From an uncultured Planctomycetales bacterium (GTDB taxonomy: Bacteria; 4484-113): 48,602 bases of DNA. The position numbers and the translations under genes are program-made. Under the pieces are notes generated by a model. It searched no databases and had not been told where the DNA came from. It saw only the letters and a program-made list of their open reading frames with translations. Each line of letters opens with the position of its first letter. The first letter of the stretch is position 1. The DNA is taken from NCBI GenBank assembly GCA_964643155.1, contig CAZXPM010000001.1, positions 1 to 48,602 of the forward strand, written 5' to 3'. Below, one piece after another: positions 10,375 through 44,446 of this stretch.

Positions 10375-11060
10375 AACGCAAGGCCATAACAGCTATTCTG
10401 CGCGAAGCTGCCAACCGCGTTGACTTCACTACCGAGCGTTATTACAATATATCATTCAGATTGGGGAACGAGGGGCTTCCGGGCAGCGTACCAGAAACCA
10501 AGCCCGATTACAGCCTCTACGAATACCAAACTGAACTGAACCGGATTCGCATTGAGCTATTCCGCTTGCAGCGGGGCTTAGCCGGGCTGAAGATGCCCGC
10601 CATTGAAGCGGTAGGGCTGGACCGGGTCGGCGAGGACCTTGAGCGGCTCAGGGGGGATCTCGTGAGACTCCTGGGGAAAGTGGACAAGGTCGCCAGCCTG
10701 GAGCCGTCCAAGGCCGCGATTGAGGGCTTCCTGGAAGTGGCCGATGCTTGCGAGCGGGTGCTTGCTGCGGCCAGAAAAACAGAGGGCATACCTGAAAGCG
10801 TGATGGCCGGGATGGGATCCATCTACCGGCTATTGCTCGGGAAGCTGGCGCGTCTCGGGGTTATCCAGATTACAGATAACGAGCGCTTCGATCCAAAGGT
10901 GCACATGGCGCTGGCGACCGTGGAGGATCCCAGCAAGCCGGACGGCAGCATCGCCGAAGTGCAACTGACCGGATACATGCTGGACGATCAGGTACTGCGC
11001 AGCGCACAAGTTATCGTGGTGCGGAATCGCAGCACTGGCGATGACACTGGTGCCGGATAG
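10371..11060 (+). CDS. grpE: GrpE-like nucleotide exchange factor
   Basis: ATGA overlap with the upstream gene. Coiled-coil N-terminal half. The C-terminal beta-domain signature is ERFDPKVHMALATVEDP...GSIAEVQLTGYMLDDQVLRSAQVIVV. Confidence 0.75.
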   Translation: MKRKAITAILREAANRVDFTTERYYNISFRLGNEGLPGSVPETKPDYSLYEYQTELNRIRIELFRLQRGLAGLKMPAIEAVGLDRVGEDLERLRGDLVRLLGKVDKVASLEPSKAAIEGFLEVADACERVLAAARKTEGIPESVMAGMGSIYRLLLGKLARLGVIQITDNERFDPKVHMALATVEDPSKPDGSIAEVQLTGYMLDDQVLRSAQVIVVRNRSTGDDTGAG

Positions 11061-11087
11061 TGCGATCTTGGATTTATAGGAGTTATC

Positions 11088-12836
11088 ATGGCGCAGATTG
11101 TTGGAATCGACTTGGGCACGACCAACTCGTTGGTCGCGGCCATAGTGGACGGCAAGCCGACCCTCATTCCCAATGAGCGAGGCAAGTTCATCACGCCTTC
11201 CGTCGTCGGCTTCACCGACACGGGAGAGCTGCTGGTGGGCGAGACGGCAAAGAACCAAGCGGTAGCTAATCCCGAGCGCACTGTCACTAGCATCAAGCGC
11301 ATGATGGGCACGGACCGGAGGATAGTAATCGGCGAGCGCGAGTATTCGCCGCAGGAGATTTCGGCGGTCATCCTCAAGAAGCTCAAGCTGGACGCCGAGA
11401 CTTACCTCGGTACCGTAGTTAACGAGGCTATCATTACGGTTCCTGCGTACTTCACCGACGCCCAGCGGCAGGCCACCAAGGATGCTGGAGAGATTGCCGG
11501 CTTTAAGGTGGAGCGCATCATCAATGAGCCCACTGCCGCCGCCCTGGCTTATGGCATTGACAAGGGCGGAGAGGCGCGCACCATTATGGTGTACGACCTC
11601 GGCGGCGGCACTTTTGACGTCTCTATCATCCGGCTGGTTGAAGGGGCGTTCAAGGTGCTCGCCACCACCGGCAACAACAACCTAGGCGGCGACGACTTTG
11701 ACTACCGGCTTGTGCAGTACCTCATTGACCGCTTCAAGGACAAGGAGAAGATTGACCTTAAGAACATCCCCGATGTCTCGCAACAGCGCGCCATCTTGCA
11801 GCGCTTGAAGGAGGCCGCAGAGACCGCGAAAATCGACCTCTCCTCGCTGTTGGAAACCGAGGTCAATCTGCCTTTCATCTATACCGAGGGCGAAGAACCG
11901 CTGCACCTGCACGAAACCATTAGCCGCGCAAAATACGAGGAGCTGGTGCAGGACCTGGTGCAGCAGACGGAGCAGCCCATGAAGCTGGCTTTGTCTGACG
12001 CCAATCTGCCGCCGGACCAGATTGACGCCATCATCCTGGTCGGCGGTATGACCCGAACGCCGATGGTGCAGCGCCTGGTGCGGGAAGTTATGGGACGCGA
12101 TGCACTGAAGGACATCAACCCCGAGGAGTGCGTGGCCATCGGCGCATCAATCCAGGCCGGCATCAAGCGCGGCTCGCTGGAAGAGTTCGTGGTGGTGGAC
12201 GTTGCGCCCTTTACGCTCGGCATTGAGACCGAGGGCGATAAGTTCTCACCCATTGTACCGCGCAACACTGCGATCCCCTGCAGCCGCAAGAGCCTGTACC
12301 GTACGACCGTTGACGGGCAATCGGAAGCGCTAATCCACGTCCTTCAGGGCGAGAGCCACAAGGCCGCGGAGAACGAGTCTCTGGGCGAGTTCATCCTCGG
12401 CGGGATAACTCCAGCCCCCAAGGGCGAGTCCCTGGTTGAGGTGTCGTTTGACTACGATGTGAACGGCATCGTGAAAATCACGGCCAAGGACCGCAAAACG
12501 GGCCAGGCCAAGTCCATCACGATTAAGGCCTCCAAGAAGCGGCTCTCCACCGACGAGGTCGCCTATGCCCAGCGTGACATCAGCAAGCACACAGGCAGCA
12601 TGCTGGCGCAGCGGGAGAAGTCGAAAGTCCTGTTTGAGGCGGAACGCACTCTCAAGGACCTCAGCGGGCTCATTAAGGCCGGCGAGAAGGGCGAAAAGAA
12701 GATTGACGGCATCGAACTCGCGGCCCTCAATGAGATGTCCAAGAAGCTCAAGGACGCACTGAAGACAGAGGACTTGGGCAAACTTGAAGAGTACGTTGAG
12801 AAGGCGACAGGGCTTATTGCCGATTACTCATACTGA
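11088..12836 (+). CDS. Hsp70/DnaK-family chaperone paralog (582 aa, short lid)
   Basis: [47 protein letters not shown], and the SBD-beta [22 protein letters not shown] lies upstream. Confidence 0.9.
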
Positions 12837-37301: not shown

Positions 37302-38237
37302 CTAGGGCTTCTTCGGCTGGAGGTCATCGAAGGAGAGACCGCCGATAATGAGGATGTAGCTTGGGACCATCGGCAGCACACAGGGCGAAAGAAACGACGC
37401 CAGTCCGCCAAGGAAGGCAATGCCGAGGTTAACTGAACGGCCAGCGAGCATCTCCTCGGCGTTGAGCGAGGATGTGCCCAGCAGCGATATCACCTTCGCC
37501 GTGCCCAGGAAGAAAACCGCGAGACAGAGCACGCCGGCGAAGATGAGGGCGGGCGCCAACAGCTTGCGGCGCAGGGTCTCGTCCTTCGCCATGATGCGCG
37601 CCAGTTGGAGGGCAACGGCAAAAACCAGCGCGATGACCCCGGCCCACAGCGCAATGCGGAAGAGCAAGGCGGGCTGGACAGTGTAGATACCGGACATAAA
37701 GCCGAAGAAAAGCACCAAACCTACAGCGATGAGCAGGGTGGCGCTGACGAAGTTGATCGTACCCACGTGGCGCGCCACGCGCTGAATGAAGCCCACGGCC
37801 GAGCCGATGAGTAGCGCCACCAGCAGGAAAGGTATCGCCAGGCCGAGCGAGTAGGCAATCATCATGGGCACCCCCTGGCCGGGCTGGCTGGCGGCTAGTG
37901 TGAGGATAACCACGAGTATGGGGCCGAGGCAGGGCGTCCATCCGGCGGCGAAGGTGATGCCGATGAGGAAACTGGAGAGGTAGCCGCCCTTGCTCTGAAC
38001 ATGCGCCTTTTTCTCAAGCAACAGGAAGCGCAGCGGCGAGAGGCCCCAGGTACTCAGCAGGATGTGCAGGCCCAGGATCATGACGATGACCCCGCCCACC
38101 CAGCCGAACATGCGCGGGTAGTTCTTGATCAGGTCGCCGATGAAGTTCGCCGGCAGGCCGAGGACGACGAAGATGATGGAGAAACCCAGCACGAATGCCA
38201 GCGAGTGGCTGAAGGCTTTGAGAACGGCCCGATTCAT
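37302..38237 (-). CDS. ccdA: CcdA/DsbD-family thiol:disulfide transporter core, apparently circularly permuted
   Basis: The second-Cys motif FAAGWTPCLGPIL lies mid-protein. The normally N-terminal first-Cys motif GGLASFLSPCVLPMVPSYI is at the extreme C-terminus after two extra TM helices. ATG 38237 is preceded by AGGAG. Confidence 0.7.
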   Translation of the reverse strand: MNRAVLKAFSHSLAFVLGFSIIFVVLGLPANFIGDLIKNYPRMFGWVGGVIVMILGLHILLSTWGLSPLRFLLLEKKAHVQSKGGYLSSFLIGITFAAGWTPCLGPILVVILTLAASQPGQGVPMMIAYSLGLAIPFLLVALLIGSAVGFIQRVARHVGTINFVSATLLIAVGLVLFFGFMSGIYTVQPALLFRIALWAGVIALVFAVALQLARIMAKDETLRRKLLAPALIFAGVLCLAVFFLGTAKVISLLGTSSLNAEEMLAGRSVNLGIAFLGGLASFLSPCVLPMVPSYILIIGGLSFDDLQPKKP

Positions 38238-38294
38238 ATCAGCTCCTGACGCGTGCCGCGGACGGCACAAAAGATGGCGGCCATTATATCAGCG

Positions 38295-40466
38295 TCAGGG
38301 GGCGTACTTATAGCCGCCGGAGAGATAGAGCTGCACCTGGTCAGCGAAGTGGGGGCTGGCGGGGCGCCCGCTCTCGCCGCCAGGCAGGACGGAACGGTAC
38401 AGACCGTAAGCGCCGGGCTGCATAATGAGCCGCGCCGTCGGACCGAAGGACTTGACGAAGTAGCTGCCTTTCCACTGTAACGAGGAGACGTTGACCGTGC
38501 GGAAACCGCCGCCACAAGCCAGCATGCCGGGACTGGAGTCTGCGTAGAACGGGAGCGGATGCACCAGCGGCAGGCGGTGCATCTCGCCGTAGGGTTTGAG
38601 CACGCCACCTTCGCCGGTGGCGGCGGCGACTGTGGCAGCCCACATTGCGCGCAGTTCCGTGTCGTCGGGTGCCGGCCACTCCACGCCCTGCGCGGCCAGC
38701 AGGCAGGCCAAACCGGTGTTGGCCCGGACACTGCGGTTGTGCCAGACGTGAAGCAGCAGCTCCCGGCGTAGCAGTTCATAGAGCAGCGCGCCAGGACTGT
38801 CGGCCGATTCGTCATAGTCCCAGTCGTTCAGGACCGCCAGCGCGGCGGATTCGGCGGAGTTTTGCGCCAAGCTGTCCAAACGCGCGAGCAATGGCGGCAA
38901 GAAGTCCTCGGCATAGAGCGAGTGAACATCGGACTGGATGGAAGCAAGAAGCTCTGGCGTTACTGTTTCCCCGGCACCAATGGCAGCCTGCAGGAGCGAA
39001 GTGATGCGCCTTGCGCGGTAACCGGCCGCGTAGTTTCCGGGGAAACAGGGCCGGCCGCCGGCGTCCAGCTCCGGCGGGTTGTTGCAGGAGACAAAGAAGC
39101 CCGATAGTGGGTTGACCGCTCGGGGAAGATCGGCAGGAGGGATGAAGCTCCAGCGGTAAGCGGCGGCCTGTTCGGCTGTGGTGACAACCCGTGGACGCTC
39201 GCTGTTGTAGCTCCGAAACGGGACAGAGCCGCAGGCAAGATAGGCGATGTTGCCACCCACATCGCCGTAGACCAAGTTCACCGGCGTGACGATGCGCCCG
39301 GCAGCTTCCTCGAAGTCCGCCAGCGACATAGCACGGTTGAGGTCGTAGAAGGCGGCCGCCTCAGCATTCTCGTAGAAGCCGCTCCAGCAGAGGATGTAGA
39401 AGTTGTCAGCGTCCTCCTCAATGACGGGGCCGAAGGCGGTGTCAATCACGGTGACAGTCTCGTCGCTCACCAGCAGGCCATCGCGCACACGGATGATCTC
39501 CTCGCGCGGCTGCGGCCCAGCGCCAAGCGTGGCGGCCTGCGTCTTCGCAACAGTCATCACATCTTCATTGTCGGCCTGCAGCGCTGTCAGGCCCCACGCG
39601 CAGAACGAGTTGCGGCCAATGAGCACAAGGCCCAGGCCCGGGATGGAGACGCCGCGGACGTCCATTTCGCCTGGGACGGTGAGCCAGACCTCGTACCAGA
39701 GGCTGGGAAGCGTGATATCCAGGTGCGGGTCGCTGGCGACCAGCGGGAGGCCGTCGTTAGTGCAGCTGCCAGAAACGGCGAAGGCGTTGCTGCCAAGACT
39801 GGGTTCCAGCGCGGAAACAGAGGAGGCGATGGCGGCGGGGTCGCCGAGGACAGGATAAGCGGGGACGGCAGCGGCGGCGGATTCCACTAGCGCAAGCGAA
39901 GAAGCAGTGGAAGCACTGCGGCCAGCACGCAGCAGCGTCAGTTCATCATGATGGTCGCCAGAGAGGAGCTGGGTGACCATCAGTGCAATGGCGAGGGTGT
40001 CTTCAGGCTGCCACGGCGCGAACTCCGGCAGGAACATGTATTCGGGCGTTGGGCCCCTTTCAGCCGCGTAAGCGTTGATGCCGCGGGAGTATTCCAGCAG
40101 TGCTTTGAGTACTTCCGGGCGTTCGGATTTGAGCAGCGCCAGGTTTCGTTGAGCATACCGGCGCAGATTGAGCTGACGCATCTGGATGTCTGCTGAGAGG
40201 AAGTCCCTGCCCACTATCTCAGCCAGTTGGCCATGGGCCTTGCGGCGGGTGACGTCCAGTTGGAGCAGGCGGTCTTCGGCGGTGGCGTAACCCAGTGCGT
40301 AGAACAGCTCGGGTACCGTGGCGGCGGTGATATGGGGCACCCCCCACTCGTCACGCCGAACCTGCCCGGGGGCTGCAAGCGAGGTGTAAGCTATCGCCGC
40401 CCAGCAGGCAGCCAGGATGGCGGCAAACAGAAGCGGCTTCAACCGGCGGCGCAAAATGCGTGACAC
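38295..40466 (-). CDS. Penicillin/AHL acylase family protein (peptidase S45, Ntn hydrolase), secreted
   Basis: Signal peptide; RDEWGVPHITA; a candidate autoprocessing site LGSNAFAVSG; LVASDPHL. Size is ~720 aa. Confidence 0.8.
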   Translation of the reverse strand: MSRILRRRLKPLLFAAILAACWAAIAYTSLAAPGQVRRDEWGVPHITAATVPELFYALGYATAEDRLLQLDVTRRKAHGQLAEIVGRDFLSADIQMRQLNLRRYAQRNLALLKSERPEVLKALLEYSRGINAYAAERGPTPEYMFLPEFAPWQPEDTLAIALMVTQLLSGDHHDELTLLRAGRSASTASSLALVESAAAAVPAYPVLGDPAAIASSVSALEPSLGSNAFAVSGSCTNDGLPLVASDPHLDITLPSLWYEVWLTVPGEMDVRGVSIPGLGLVLIGRNSFCAWGLTALQADNEDVMTVAKTQAATLGAGPQPREEIIRVRDGLLVSDETVTVIDTAFGPVIEEDADNFYILCWSGFYENAEAAAFYDLNRAMSLADFEEAAGRIVTPVNLVYGDVGGNIAYLACGSVPFRSYNSERPRVVTTAEQAAAYRWSFIPPADLPRAVNPLSGFFVSCNNPPELDAGGRPCFPGNYAAGYRARRITSLLQAAIGAGETVTPELLASIQSDVHSLYAEDFLPPLLARLDSLAQNSAESAALAVLNDWDYDESADSPGALLYELLRRELLLHVWHNRSVRANTGLACLLAAQGVEWPAPDDTELRAMWAATVAAATGEGGVLKPYGEMHRLPLVHPLPFYADSSPGMLACGGGFRTVNVSSLQWKGSYFVKSFGPTARLIMQPGAYGLYRSVLPGGESGRPASPHFADQVQLYLSGGYKYAP

Positions 40467-40471
40467 CGGAG

Positions 40472-41260
40472 CTATCCGCCGCGGAAGATCACAGCCAGAC
40501 GCTGGATGATCTCGGCGTTGATCCAGTCAAACATCAGGAACTGCATGCGCCCGATGAGCAGCGAGACACGAGCCATAATGGTGTAGCCGAAGGTCGCGCC
40601 GAAGGCTACCATCAGGGTATACACACCTATCCGGGCTACGCCGCCCACGAAACCCCGGTGTTCTACTGAGAAGAAGAAGTACACGAGCACCGACAGTGCG
40701 CCCACAAACAGCACTAGCGCATTGAGCAGCTTCACGAAATCGGGGCCCGAGGTGACCATGTACGGGATGACGTCTATCGTGGCATAGAACTGGGGCAGCA
40801 GCAGACCGCTGAACACCTTGGAAAGAGAGATGCCGGTGAAACCGCCAATATAGAAGGCGAAGGTCGTGCGCGAAAGCCAGCCGAGACCCGGCACCAGGCG
40901 CAGCAAGATGAAGAAGCCCAAGACGCCTGGGATAAGAACCCAGAGGTTGAGAGTGGACCCTTCGGGCGTCCCGAACTTCGGATCCAGCCAGGGCAGAAGC
41001 TGGTAGATGAACACCGGCTTCATGTTGTTGAAGAAGTACAGAGACATCAGGTAGCCCGCGGAGATTCCCAGGTAGAGGTGCTCACCGAGCCGGAAGAGCG
41101 CGTTGTCCTTATAGATGAAGGAGAACATTACGAGCGTCAGTCCGGCGGCAATCCAGGTTCCGACGGAGACCATGGTGTCCCCGGTAAAGAAGTCAGCCAT
41201 GGACTGCTGCCAAGGCAGCAAGTGGCTTTCGGCCTGTAGCAGGATTGCTAGGTTCAGCAT
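40472..41260 (-). CDS. Polytopic membrane protein, unknown function (operon member D)
   Basis: About 6-7 hydrophobic helices. I chose ATG 41260 (MLNLAILL), which lies 1 nt after the upstream TAA and has GGGAG 10 nt upstream. The track start is 41284. Confidence 0.6.
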   Translation of the reverse strand: MLNLAILLQAESHLLPWQQSMADFFTGDTMVSVGTWIAAGLTLVMFSFIYKDNALFRLGEHLYLGISAGYLMSLYFFNNMKPVFIYQLLPWLDPKFGTPEGSTLNLWVLIPGVLGFFILLRLVPGLGWLSRTTFAFYIGGFTGISLSKVFSGLLLPQFYATIDVIPYMVTSGPDFVKLLNALVLFVGALSVLVYFFFSVEHRGFVGGVARIGVYTLMVAFGATFGYTIMARVSLLIGRMQFLMFDWINAEIIQRLAVIFRGG

Positions 41261-41261
41261 A

Positions 41262-42125
41262 TTACTTCTCCCTCCGGGCCGCATTGCGCTTCTGTATCGC
41301 CAGCGCGAAGGCGAATATGTTTGCCAGCACTATTGCCACGAACAGCAGTGCGTGCACCATGGACTGTGAGTCCATCGCGGCCACCGCCATGTCCGGGTGC
41401 TCCATCAGCATCTCGTACTCAGCGGCTCCCTTAAGCCCGCCGATGATGCCGTTGAGCTGCTTGGCCTGCAGGTAGGGGTAGTATTGAGGGGCGACAACGG
41501 CGGTAACGCCACCGCCCACTTCTACATCGTGGACCTCCGTGCCGTAGACAATCCACCAGTCGCCCGAGTTGCCCGCCTCAAACATGATCATGTAGTCAGC
41601 CTGTCCCAGGCGGTTGAAGTTTTTAATGACGGGCATTGTAGAAGTAGCATTGCCATAATAGTCCTTGGGGAACGTCTCAACAAAACTGTTGCCCACACCG
41701 ATGATGACAATGGTGCCGCCTACCTGGTAGCCCAGGAAAACAAAGTCGTCGCCACTCCTCCAGTTGGGATACTCCTCCTTAACTTCTTCGATGCACTGGG
41801 CCACCAGATTGGGGCCATTGGGCCAGAGCACGGTGATGGCAAGCTTGTGCTTCTTCCGTGCGATGTGGCGCATCACCGCTTTCATCATCGGGTAGAGTTC
41901 GGGCTGGGAAGCGGGGTCGAAATCCGCACTCATCATGATGTTGGAGCCTTCCGGCAGGTTCTCAATCTTGTCGAATACGCTCTGCACTTCAGGCGTAATC
42001 CGGATAGGAAGCCCGATGGGCCAGATGAGAGGAATGGCCACCGCCAGCGCCACCAGGGTATAGATGATCCGCCGGTCAAGCAGGAGGAAAAGCTCCAGGA
42101 AGTTGCGTTTGGCCTCATTCTCCAT
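41262..42125 (-). CDS. Bitopic membrane protein with N- and C-terminal TM helices flanking a ~220-aa soluble domain, unknown function (operon member C)
   Basis: TM helices are IIYTLVALAVAIPLIWPIGL and VHALLFVAIVLANIFAFALAI. TAATG overlap with the upstream gene. Confidence 0.6.
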   Translation of the reverse strand: MENEAKRNFLELFLLLDRRIIYTLVALAVAIPLIWPIGLPIRITPEVQSVFDKIENLPEGSNIMMSADFDPASQPELYPMMKAVMRHIARKKHKLAITVLWPNGPNLVAQCIEEVKEEYPNWRSGDDFVFLGYQVGGTIVIIGVGNSFVETFPKDYYGNATSTMPVIKNFNRLGQADYMIMFEAGNSGDWWIVYGTEVHDVEVGGGVTAVVAPQYYPYLQAKQLNGIIGGLKGAAEYEMLMEHPDMAVAAMDSQSMVHALLFVAIVLANIFAFALAIQKRNAARREK

Positions 42126-42757
42126 TAGTCGCCACCTCCCATGTAGGTGCGCTCAATGCCGAAGATTATGCGCACCGAAATGGCGATCTGGGCCAGCGCC
42201 ACACCCAGGACCACACCGCGCAGACCCGCCATATTGGGGTTGTTCATGATCCACCCTGCGAAGTCGCTGAGATACGGACTGATGAACTCCCCTATAGGAA
42301 CGCGTCCGATCATCACCAGCAAGCCTGCAATCAGCAGCGCAAGTGCTTCCCAGGTTCTAGCCCGGAAGGCGCGGAACGCGGCTGATGCTATGAAGAAAGC
42401 CAAGGTGGCGAACATCGTCGCCTGCATCGGCACGAACAGCCACCAGTACTCCCAGCCAACTGGCGTACCAGGCCGGACGCTGAAGATGAGTCCGAGGAGT
42501 AGCATCTGGATGAACGCGATAATCGTAACCATGGAATAGCCGTAGCCCGGCACCTTGCGGCGCACTCTGTTTACGTGATGGTGCAGCAGCGAGAGAATGG
42601 CGAACACGGCGGAGAAACCGACGATTACGATTGCCCAGTTGGTGAAGCCTTCGTACAGATCTGTGGCGATTTTCGCGGGCACGAACTCCCGGATGAACAT
42701 CGTCATTCCCATCGCAAAAGCCAGTAGTATCGGAAACTGTTTCCGGAAAAACTGCAT
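42125..42757 (-). CDS. Polytopic membrane protein (~5-6 TM), unknown function (operon member B)
   Basis: 210-aa hydrophobic ORF that starts 3 nt after the upstream stop. Confidence 0.6.
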   Translation of the reverse strand: MQFFRKQFPILLAFAMGMTMFIREFVPAKIATDLYEGFTNWAIVIVGFSAVFAILSLLHHHVNRVRRKVPGYGYSMVTIIAFIQMLLLGLIFSVRPGTPVGWEYWWLFVPMQATMFATLAFFIASAAFRAFRARTWEALALLIAGLLVMIGRVPIGEFISPYLSDFAGWIMNNPNMAGLRGVVLGVALAQIAISVRIIFGIERTYMGGGD

Positions 42758-42760
42758 AGC

Positions 42761-44269
42761 TTACCCCAGAGCTTTGAAGAGATCCTTGACGAAAGACATG
42801 CCGAAGGTCACAAGCAGCGTGCCTATCAGAATCACAACCATCATAAAGAGCTTAGCCATATCCTGGCCCTTGAGACTGCCGAGCACCAGCGGCTCGCGCG
42901 AAAGGTATGCGCTCGCGGCGTAGAGCTCCTCGCCAATCAGGGTGTAGTCGCAGGTGGTGACAAAGAAGGGGAGCTGTGTAACCGCATCCGTTCCGGCAAT
43001 CTGAATGGCACCGGTGCTGGCCCCGGTTTCGGCCAGAATCAGGCTTTCGGCATAGTAGTAGCCCATGAAGAAGTTGGCCGCAGGCTTGTCCCGCATCATG
43101 ATACCGCAAACTGCGGCCGCATAGGAGAACTGATCCTCAGTGAGGAAGAAGATGTTGTCCTCGTTGTAGGCGTCGGGCCTTCCTGCGTCAGCGAAGCCCG
43201 CTTTCACAATCTCCTGCGCCACTGTCAGCACGATGGGGTCGCGGCAGGGCACTACGAGCGTTGACTCGTAATTCGCCACTCTCCGTGCAACGCGCCCAAG
43301 AATGTTGAGCGCAGCCAGCGTGGACAGGTCCGCCAAGCTCGACATTCCGTTCAAGTAGAGAATCGGCTTCCCCATCTCAGTCGCGCGGCCGATAGCCTCA
43401 TCCACTGCATCCAGTCCGTTGATCTTGCGGATAAACAGATTGGGGTCGCGGCGGGCGCGCGAAATGAAGTAAAGCACGGTTGCGCCGAACAGCACTGCGA
43501 GAATCAGCATATTCGTCTTGCTCACGTCAAACCAGTTCTCACGGGCGGTTGCGCTCAGCACTTCCGGATACTCGGCCGTTGCATCGCCGAGCCTGGCTTC
43601 GAGCTTGACGTACAATTCACCAATCGTGCGGGGCTGGACTTCCACCAGCTTTGAGCTCACCTTCTCCTCTCCAGTATCCGGGTCGATGATGCCGGGTTCA
43701 ATCGGTCGGCCGTCTTTGTTCTTCGGTCCAACGTTCGGCCTGACCGTGAAGCCTTCCGGCTCGGGCAGCCGGATGGCGTTGCCCTTCGCGTCAAACTCCC
43801 CAGTGGCCACATCTTGTACTAGTAACACATGATGTAGCTTGGCCTCCCGGCTCTTCTTGAACCAGTAGAAGATCGGGAAGTAATGGCCGTGATCCTCCAT
43901 GTAGGACTCGTTGCCCGCAATGCTCCCGGCTTCAAGCCAAGGCCCATTAGGGGTCTCCGCGAGGTATGCGGTGTATGTGAGTTCGGGGGACTCCTCGGGG
44001 AAAGCCTCCCAGGTCAGGTAGAGCCCGGTGCCATCGTCATTGGGGAGATCCCGTAGCGTCACGCCAGAGGGCAAGGGCACAGTGGTTACTGGAACCTCTG
44101 GCTCTTCCTCCTCCAGGCCGATGACTATATCCGCATCTTGCAGGGCCGCAATCTCGGAGGGATCCCCCGCAGCGGGCGGAAGCTCTTCCGGCTCCTGGGC
44201 GAATCCGGCCAGGGACAAGGCAAATAGCAGTACAAAGAAGATAGCTGCCTGAGAAAGGTTGTTCTTCAT
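42761..44269 (-). CDS. Signal-peptide protein with acidic linker, extracytoplasmic domain, TM, ~210-aa second domain and C-terminal TM; unknown function (operon member A)
   Basis: Signal peptide MKNNLSQAAIFFVLLFALSLAGFAQ. TM helices are MLILAVLFGATVLYFI and LFMMVVILIGTLLVTFGMSF. No Walker or catalytic motif recognised. Confidence 0.65.
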   Translation of the reverse strand: MKNNLSQAAIFFVLLFALSLAGFAQEPEELPPAAGDPSEIAALQDADIVIGLEEEEPEVPVTTVPLPSGVTLRDLPNDDGTGLYLTWEAFPEESPELTYTAYLAETPNGPWLEAGSIAGNESYMEDHGHYFPIFYWFKKSREAKLHHVLLVQDVATGEFDAKGNAIRLPEPEGFTVRPNVGPKNKDGRPIEPGIIDPDTGEEKVSSKLVEVQPRTIGELYVKLEARLGDATAEYPEVLSATARENWFDVSKTNMLILAVLFGATVLYFISRARRDPNLFIRKINGLDAVDEAIGRATEMGKPILYLNGMSSLADLSTLAALNILGRVARRVANYESTLVVPCRDPIVLTVAQEIVKAGFADAGRPDAYNEDNIFFLTEDQFSYAAAVCGIMMRDKPAANFFMGYYYAESLILAETGASTGAIQIAGTDAVTQLPFFVTTCDYTLIGEELYAASAYLSREPLVLGSLKGQDMAKLFMMVVILIGTLLVTFGMSFVKDLFKALG

Positions 44270-44446
44270 AGGCGGGTTACCTTCGAAAGGTGAGGTATTA
44301 TATCAGTAAAGACTCCCGGTTTGCCAACCTCCCCTCGCAGAATCGAATAAGTCGTTCTGCAGACGGCTCGGTACACTCCTGGCGTTGCGCGCGGTGTTCA
44401 ATCTGCTATCCTATGAGACAATCCGGCAACGTAAAGGAGCTGAATC

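Follow-up and report, generated by a model that had tools for sequence, protein, structure and literature searches.

A conserved four-gene DUF6754 membrane cassette in an uncultured Planctomycetales bacterium, a co-occurring GlmL-type ATPase module and a clade-restricted S45 acylase

In energy-coupling factor (ECF) transporters one energising module serves several membrane units, and the acylase PvdQ matures the pyoverdine precursor by removing an acyl group outside the cytoplasm. We compare with these systems a group of genes in a stretch of 48,602 nt from an uncultured Planctomycetales bacterium (the window in what follows, that is, the whole of the DNA analysed; contig CAZXPM010000001.1 of assembly GCA_964643155.1, here genome G000, contig C1). 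Its minus strand carries six consecutive genes, established from the list of open reading frames (ORFs) and by reading the junctions in the DNA, which encode four membrane proteins (A, B, C and D), an S45 N-terminal nucleophile (Ntn) acylase and a CcdA-like protein. Genes A-D can be assigned with high confidence to a four-subunit inner-membrane complex, of which they would be one copy, the orthologue that we call lineage 1; we name it the DUF6754 cassette after the domain of unknown function (DUF) found in subunit A. The likeness to ECF-type transporters is one of shared logic only, with one ATPase/partner module for several (2-4) membrane cassettes; there is no homology, the ATPase has an actin fold and not that of the ATP-binding cassette (ABC) proteins, and each membrane unit has four subunits. 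With the PvdQ/PvdE system of pyoverdine maturation the locus shares a putatively secreted S45 acylase encoded beside a membrane system, but here there is neither an ABC exporter nor a non-ribosomal peptide synthetase (NRPS). The GlmL/MutL protein of glutamate (methylaspartate) mutase (PF13941) resembles the ATPase that co-occurs with the cassette and matches the full profile; however, the cassette-linked form is longer (~620-660 aa, against ~463 aa for the canonical form in genome G032) and no mutase genes lie nearby. The best solved relative of the acylase is the D-succinylase of Cupriavidus sp. P4-10-C (PDB 7eby, 7ea4), an S45 Ntn amide hydrolase whose substrates are N-succinyl-D-amino acids (PMC11241749) and whose serine nucleophile is aligned; it is nevertheless a distant relative, its substrate is not transferable, and it is not known to be linked to a membrane complex. 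No characterised system resembles the cassette by sequence, profile or fold, and subunit A had already been catalogued as a DUF. The genes, and the DUF6754 region of A, are located as follows.

42761-44269, minus strand: gene A, ORF of 502 aa
42779-43543, minus strand: DUF6754 (PF20539) region of A, residues 243-497, full-profile match, E 4.6e-122
42125-42757, minus strand: gene B, ORF of 210 aa
41262-42125, minus strand: gene C, ORF of 287 aa
40472-41260, minus strand: gene D, ORF of 262 aa; an alternative 270-aa start at 41284 overlaps C
38295-40466, minus strand: S45 Ntn acylase of 723 aa, beginning with GTG 5 nt from the end of D
37302-38270, minus strand: CcdA/DsbD-like membrane protein, 322 aa; alternative ATG at 38237

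The assignment of A-D to the DUF6754 cassette follows from the match of A to this domain, the colinear order of the four genes, their tight junctions and their strong conservation. Subunit A scores 406.5 bits against PF20539, for which the gathering cut-off is 27, and the domain occurs in all 120 homologues of A among the matches listed. The core of A is 63-70% identical to the listed homologues, Planctomycetota metagenome-assembled genomes among them, and homologues of A form at least 8000 clusters at 90% identity, all of them named 'hypothetical' or 'DUF6754'; no mention of DUF6754 was found in the literature searched. This Pfam domain of unknown function covers subunit A only, and no curated library includes B, C or D. 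The junctions are 3 nt between A and B, a TAATG overlap (-1 nt) between B and C, and 1 nt between C and D (TAA-T-ATG). The 262-aa start of D agrees with two relatives of the same family (L014, L017), in which an ATG lies 1-3 nt past the stop of C and the alignment begins at that methionine. The original prediction, that four translationally coupled genes with such junctions encode a stoichiometric membrane complex, was borne out as to the genes and gained support as to the complex: the short junctions and an order strictly kept in more than 100 cassettes fit an assembly of this kind.

Every one of the 21 cassettes in 20 loci sampled from the clade and its outgroups (L013-L032) has the colinear order A-B-C-D, with junctions that are short or overlapping, and so have 80 of 80 loci from other phyla (L043-L122), as far as the contigs reach. 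The latter are the best 80 of at least 580 confirmed relatives that the profile of B retrieved in species genomes, and they come from about 15 phyla, with Nitrospira, Brocadiaceae, Cloacimonadota, Poribacteria, WOR-3, Latescibacterota, Gemmatimonas, Zixibacteria, Binatia, Armatimonadota, Eisenbacteria, TA06, Ignavibacteria, UBP2 and Planctomycetota among the sources; a homologue of B is also present in the cultured Nitrospira sp. KM1. Such a four-gene arrangement is far beyond chance. The gene order was conserved everywhere it was inspected and none of the four proteins matched a characterised system; neither outcome that would have overturned the original prediction was seen. DUF6754 was found in 27 of 41 sampled genomes, mostly in two or more copies, and in none of 14 well-known control genomes; many complete genomes are without any cassette. 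The alignments of the A core, B, C and D contain many invariant residues, and within A a variable ectodomain is joined to a constant cytoplasmic domain. A second A-B-C-D set, 39-48% identical to the first and without acylase or CcdA, was located by tblastn in the same genome (C24:5169-8670). This second cassette, the GlmL-type ATPase module described below and the widespread status of the family had all been missed when the window was first read. As separate observations, the second locus (L013, C24:5028-8835) has a TTGACG...TATAAT promoter-like site upstream of the cassette, which is preceded on the same strand by three ORFs (731, 1209 and 211 aa) with hydrophobic signal-peptide-like N-termini.

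The topologies of A-D were deduced from the hydropathy of the aligned families and from their K/R counts under the positive-inside rule, and they agree with the earlier description of A as having a signal peptide and two transmembrane (TM) helices, B and D as polytopic and C as having a TM helix at either end. Subunit A consists of a signal peptide, an acidic linker, the variable ectodomain, a first TM helix (249-267), the conserved alpha/beta domain on the cytoplasmic side and a second TM helix (476-494); the mean number of K+R in the TM flanks is 7.1 towards the cytoplasm and 2.0 towards the ectodomain. No Pfam family matches the ectodomain, and an FN3-like label that had been considered for it was not supported. 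Subunit B has six TM helices with both termini inside, and its most conserved parts, the AAYRAFRAR motif after TM4 and the GIERTYMGGGD tail, face the cytoplasm. In C a TM helix, a soluble alpha/beta-type domain of ~210 aa, a second TM helix and a basic tail follow one another, and the acidic flanks indicate that the soluble domain is probably periplasmic. D has about 5-6 TM helices. Short additional genes that encode DUF6754 only (about 296-320 aa, ~35% identical) were also noticed directly upstream of complete cassettes (L023:10600-11487 and G019:C55:15361-16068).

A structural model of residues 232-502 of A, obtained with AlphaFold2 from 65 sequences (predicted local distance difference test, pLDDT, 90; predicted template-modelling score, pTM, 0.80), is confident and consists of two long TM helices with a six-stranded alpha/beta domain, folded as an alpha/beta sandwich, between them. 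Its comparison with the PDB by Foldseek returned no match at E <= 1e-3, only generic Rossmann-like ones. The best of these are SIS and LOG/Moco-carrier-type Rossmann-like domains (3sho, 2xbl, 6y01, 2iz5), which share a three-layer alpha/beta sandwich with the cytoplasmic domain of A; however, with E values of 3e-3 to 3e-2 and template-modelling (TM) scores of 0.33-0.36 by query and at most 0.51 by target, the likeness stays below the level of a common fold family, and it offers at most a weak lead towards the binding of a small molecule or nucleotide by A. The invariant residues of A (R50, R64, E67, G69, G77, Q149, R162, G172, E177, E183, Q201, Y211, G215 and E217 in model numbering) would, judging from the secondary-structure string of the model, lie at the C-terminal end of a beta-strand or shortly beyond it, which in Rossmann-like folds is the usual ligand site. 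The model of B, built from 22 sequences, is too poor to use (pLDDT 68, pTM 0.43), and its Foldseek matches are noise.

Searches with the sequences and profiles of all four subunits against the PDB gave nothing at E <= 10, and B, C and D have no match in Pfam, NCBIfam, PADLOC or the PDB. When 22 members of each family were scanned against Pfam, any one family recurred in at most 3 of the 22 for B (noise below the cut-offs) and in at most 1 of the 22 for C or D, and the defence-protein models of PADLOC-DB recognised none of the four. The earlier statement that A-D lack Walker, ABC, MFS and RND motifs and belong to no characterised family holds: Pfam and NCBIfam gave no such match, and A matches DUF6754 only. 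An internal duplication, with the A core related to C and B to D, was considered and rejected, given that hhalign probabilities were 0.1-0.9% for all pairs and BLASTP found nothing; A, B, C and D are four mutually unrelated families. The profile of C retrieved 5365 representatives at E <= 1e-3 from a library clustered at 50%. Some homologues of C (P0277, P0341) have large inserts at profile position ~100-115, with CARDB in one and HEAT/PBS-lyase repeats in another; ten long members of this family, scanned for fused domains, yielded one with CARDB and one with HEAT repeats and no functional clue. C is tandemly duplicated, with the order A-B-C-C-D, in a Latescibacterota locus (L063) and a Gemmatimonas locus (L065), at ~10669-12272.

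The window's genome encodes one long-form ATPase of the GlmL/MutL family (C10:20597-22453, 618 aa), matched by PF13941 from end to end (E 1.5e-123), and the cassette-associated ATPase keeps the DxGSTTTK phosphate-1 motif. PF13941 co-occurs with PF20539 in 25 of the 27 genomes, among the same 41, that have a cassette; the 17 outgroup genomes comprise four with both, one with the cassette only (G039), one with a short canonical MutL only (G032) and 11 with neither. These counts span related, non-independent genomes and are suggestive rather than a statistic. The adjacency of the ATPase and the cassette is stronger evidence: GlmL and a partner protein of ~375 aa lie directly upstream of A in 32 of the 58 loci with enough flanking sequence, and both adjoin the cassette in genomes G027, G034 and G040. 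In family f3 of the clade a single run on one strand comprises GlmL, a small TM protein, the partner, A-B-C-D and the acylase. In the window's own family (f1) the ATPase module, formed by a small upstream ORF (up148), GlmL, the small TM protein and the partner, is sited away from the cassette, and the partner follows GlmL in two genomes of this family (G003, G005). In genome G011 the partner adjoins a cassette and GlmL is 1.35 Mb away. There are 1-4 cassettes per genome, two or more in most, to one ATPase. No relevant paper was found in the literature searched for PF13941, for GlmL with membranes or for methylaspartate mutase with Nitrospira. A small membrane-protein gene was seen to precede GlmL at C10:19769-22453 (L033), and in 16 loci a 123-aa protein precedes it.

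The acylase is a full-length member of the penicillin-amidase family (PF01804, E 8.4e-151, profile positions 3-664 of 675). Residue 1 of the beta-chain in the PDB structures aligns to Ser226 (codon 39789-39791, motif GSNAF), the beta-chain nucleophile; the protein has an N-terminal basic and hydrophobic, signal-like segment and may be exported and matured by autoproteolysis. Its best relatives in the PDB are the D-succinylase 7eby/7ea4 (E 2.6e-38), then penicillin G and glutaryl-7-ACA acylases; the NCBIfam equivalog for PvdQ gave 71.7 bits, against a cut-off of 950. An orthologue of the acylase is present in six of nine genomes of f1 (the window's included), three of four of f3 and the only one of f4, and in none of the ten of f2. 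Wherever the contig allows, it stands right after D, in eight relatives (G003, G004, G005, G008, G019, G020, G021 and G023) with gaps of ~5 to 130 nt, 5 nt again in G008, and this adjacency persists while the identity of the acylase drops to 33-39%. A tree of the concatenated A core, B, C and D (quick IQ-TREE run, with support from the Shimodaira-Hasegawa-like approximate likelihood ratio test, SH-aLRT, only) divides the cassettes of the clade into two old lineages: lineage 1 contains all acylase-linked cassettes and both f2 copies, and lineage 2 the second cassettes of f1 and f3. The history would be simplest if the ancestor had a GlmL...A-B-C-D-acylase run, from which f2 later lost the acylase and f1 relocated the ATPase module. 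The acylase linkage expected by the original prediction is real in f1, f3 and f4 and absent from f2 and from the 80 loci of other phyla, where no S45 acylase lies within 10 kb; because of this absence the acylase can be at most an accessory of the cassette.

Regarding function, we tentatively propose, as our preferred reading, for which our confidence is nevertheless low, that the complex is a transport module serviced by a cytoplasmic ATPase and combined with periplasmic deacylation of the substrate. In such a mechanism the shared ATPase/partner module would dock onto the domain that A places in the cytoplasm and onto the conserved surfaces that B exposes there, and would energise or gate the membrane complex, one module for several cassettes as in the ECF transporters, and the outside parts of A and C would handle the substrate. 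In lineage 1 of this clade the S45 acylase might deacylate an N-acylated amino compound in the periplasm, the complex then taking up the deacylated product; the enzymes closest to this acylase strip small polar acyl groups from amino compounds. A bolder form of the proposal, in which the cassette, the GlmL-type ATPase and the partner constitute a new class of ATP-driven transporter, the first to be powered by an ASKHA protein, with one motor for several interchangeable four-subunit units and with N-acylated amino compounds, deacylated in the periplasm, as the cargo indicated by the acylase, is quite unlikely in our estimation.

Several observations weigh against the transport module. No subunit resembles a known transporter, channel or energy-coupling protein in sequence, profile or fold searches, and no subunit matched the transporter and ion-pump families (ABC, MFS, RND, TRAP, ECF, PTS, Rnf/Nqr) at E <= 1 beyond noise far below the cut-offs, so that the argument for transport is drawn entirely from the architecture. 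For a transporter with a specific substrate, 60-70% conservation between phyla is high. In the window's genome the ATPase (C10) is unlinked to the cassettes (C1, C24), and the ~375-aa partner was not found in its assembly, which is 90% complete and in which C10 ends 780 bp after GlmL. In genome G039, which is 100% complete, there are three cassettes and an isolated partner gene (L123:4983-6104), but GlmL is missing; the ATPase may therefore be non-obligatory. As to the substrate, f2 keeps two lineage-1 cassettes without an acylase, none of the 80 loci outside the clade has one, and the adjacency within one clade could be plain inheritance. Nothing that would narrow the cargo, be it a riboswitch, a fused catalytic domain or a neighbour kept across phyla, emerged from the scans of loci and homologues: no riboswitch or other Rfam element that could give a clue to a ligand lies near the cassettes in the window and 19 loci from ~14 phyla, none of the listed homologues of A is fused to a catalytic domain, and clustering of the neighbours over the 80 loci gave, besides the GlmL module, only lineage-specific genes.

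The same lack of a transporter signature (in Pfam, NCBIfam and the scans of members) speaks for a machine of envelope maintenance, assembly or signalling that is not concerned with transport, in which the ectodomain of A would contact envelope or external parts and its cytoplasmic domain would exchange work with the actin-fold ATPase. The housekeeping-like conservation of the A core, B and D and the combination of a variable ectodomain with a constant cytoplasmic domain point the same way, as do the lipid A genes lpxA and lpxL-like in the window, although their synteny recurs only in L017; two to four paralogous cassettes per genome would however be unusual for a core assembly machine, and many complete genomes do without it, so we consider this explanation unlikely. 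The acylase lends itself to the opposite direction of traffic, with the complex exporting an N-acylated precursor and the acylase removing the acyl group outside the cytoplasm in the manner of PvdQ, which belongs to the same S45 family. A putatively secreted acylase directly after D, kept over deep divergence, is what such an exporter would show, but the cassette has no NRPS or other genes of biosynthesis in its vicinity, either in the window or in relatives, the score against the PvdQ model is far too low, and nearly all cassettes lack the acylase; export with periplasmic maturation is, on balance, very unlikely.

Independently of these alternatives, the acylase, and with it CcdA, may be passengers whose inherited order has no functional tie to A-D. 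The absence of the acylase from the 80 loci outside the clade and from the ten f2 genomes would be explained in this way, CcdA has a promoter-like box of its own, and the other neighbours FtcD, NhaP and LpxA are also conserved within the family only. Against it, the adjacency of the acylase to D has outlasted both its sequence divergence and changes in the neighbourhood, and the gap of 5 nt, found here and in G008, contains no promoter-like box; we regard a passenger role as somewhat doubtful. The hint of envelope processing or transport that the original prediction had taken from the acylase and CcdA together survives, on the side of the acylase, as a local link, and fails for CcdA beyond the family.

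Whatever reading of the transport module or its alternatives applies, the cassette is abundant, occurs in many phyla, most of them uncultured, and reaches ecologically important groups such as Nitrospira, which oxidises nitrite, the anammox bacteria, Poribacteria and Cloacimonadota, besides many candidate phyla. Its conservation is housekeeping-like, yet three of the four subunits stand outside every curated family library, and its function, once found, would fill a large annotation gap in uncultured bacteria; it could also show a new way in which a membrane process is coupled to an ATPase of the actin fold. This locus contributes the lineage that is linked to the acylase, the history of two lineages and the setting apart of ccdA from the unit. 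The acylase, kept and predicted to be periplasmic, provides a handle with a substrate range that can be screened biochemically, and it is one of the few clues to the cargo.

The remaining gene of the run, ccdA, begins 24 nt (TTG start) or 57 nt (ATG) after the acylase, and upstream of it and of A stand two extended -10 promoter-like boxes.

44297-44305, minus strand: extended -10 promoter-like box TGATATAAT, 28 nt upstream of the ATG of A
38283-38291, minus strand: the other TGATATAAT box, lying after the stop of the acylase and before the start of CcdA

These are the only two occurrences of TGATATAAT in the 48.6-kb window, where 0.04 would be expected by chance, and none lies between D and the acylase. 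The boxes TGCTATAAT (L017) and TGGTATAAT (L014) occupy the same place upstream of A in the relatives, and TGATATAAT itself precedes ccdA in L017; a stricter two-hexamer scan of the window detected no promoter, and its terminator-like sites were no more frequent than chance predicts. Because it is preceded by its own TGATATAAT box, ccdA is probably a separate transcription unit. The six-gene operon of the original prediction is therefore probable for the run A-B-C-D-acylase and doubtful for its sixth gene, a unit of five genes plus a separately promoted ccdA being more likely. CcdA follows the acylase only in the f1 relatives L014 and L017, and none of the 80 loci outside the clade has it within 10 kb, so that its linkage exists at the level of the family, where CcdA is a neighbour of the cassette and not a component. 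The protein scores 38.1 bits against PF02683 (DsbD_TM; cut-off 27.1). In the canonical arrangement of CcdA/DsbD the first of two Cys motifs is in TM1 and the second in TM4; this match starts at profile position 38, and the SPCVLPMVP motif, of a type normally located in TM1, is at the C-terminus, which fits a circular permutation noted separately when the window was first read.

Of the other genes around the cassette, FtcD, NhaP, LpxA and LpxL are conserved only within the family, with the lpx synteny in a single relative (L017). Among the loci of other phyla, a protein of ~420 aa, Memo-like by eye, follows D on the same strand in 26 cases, mostly Nitrospira (e.g. L056:12538-13800), and in a WOR-3 chromosome (L055:2859-3227) a 369-nt fragment matching positions 39-400 of bacterial 16S rRNA lies 7 kb upstream of the cassette.

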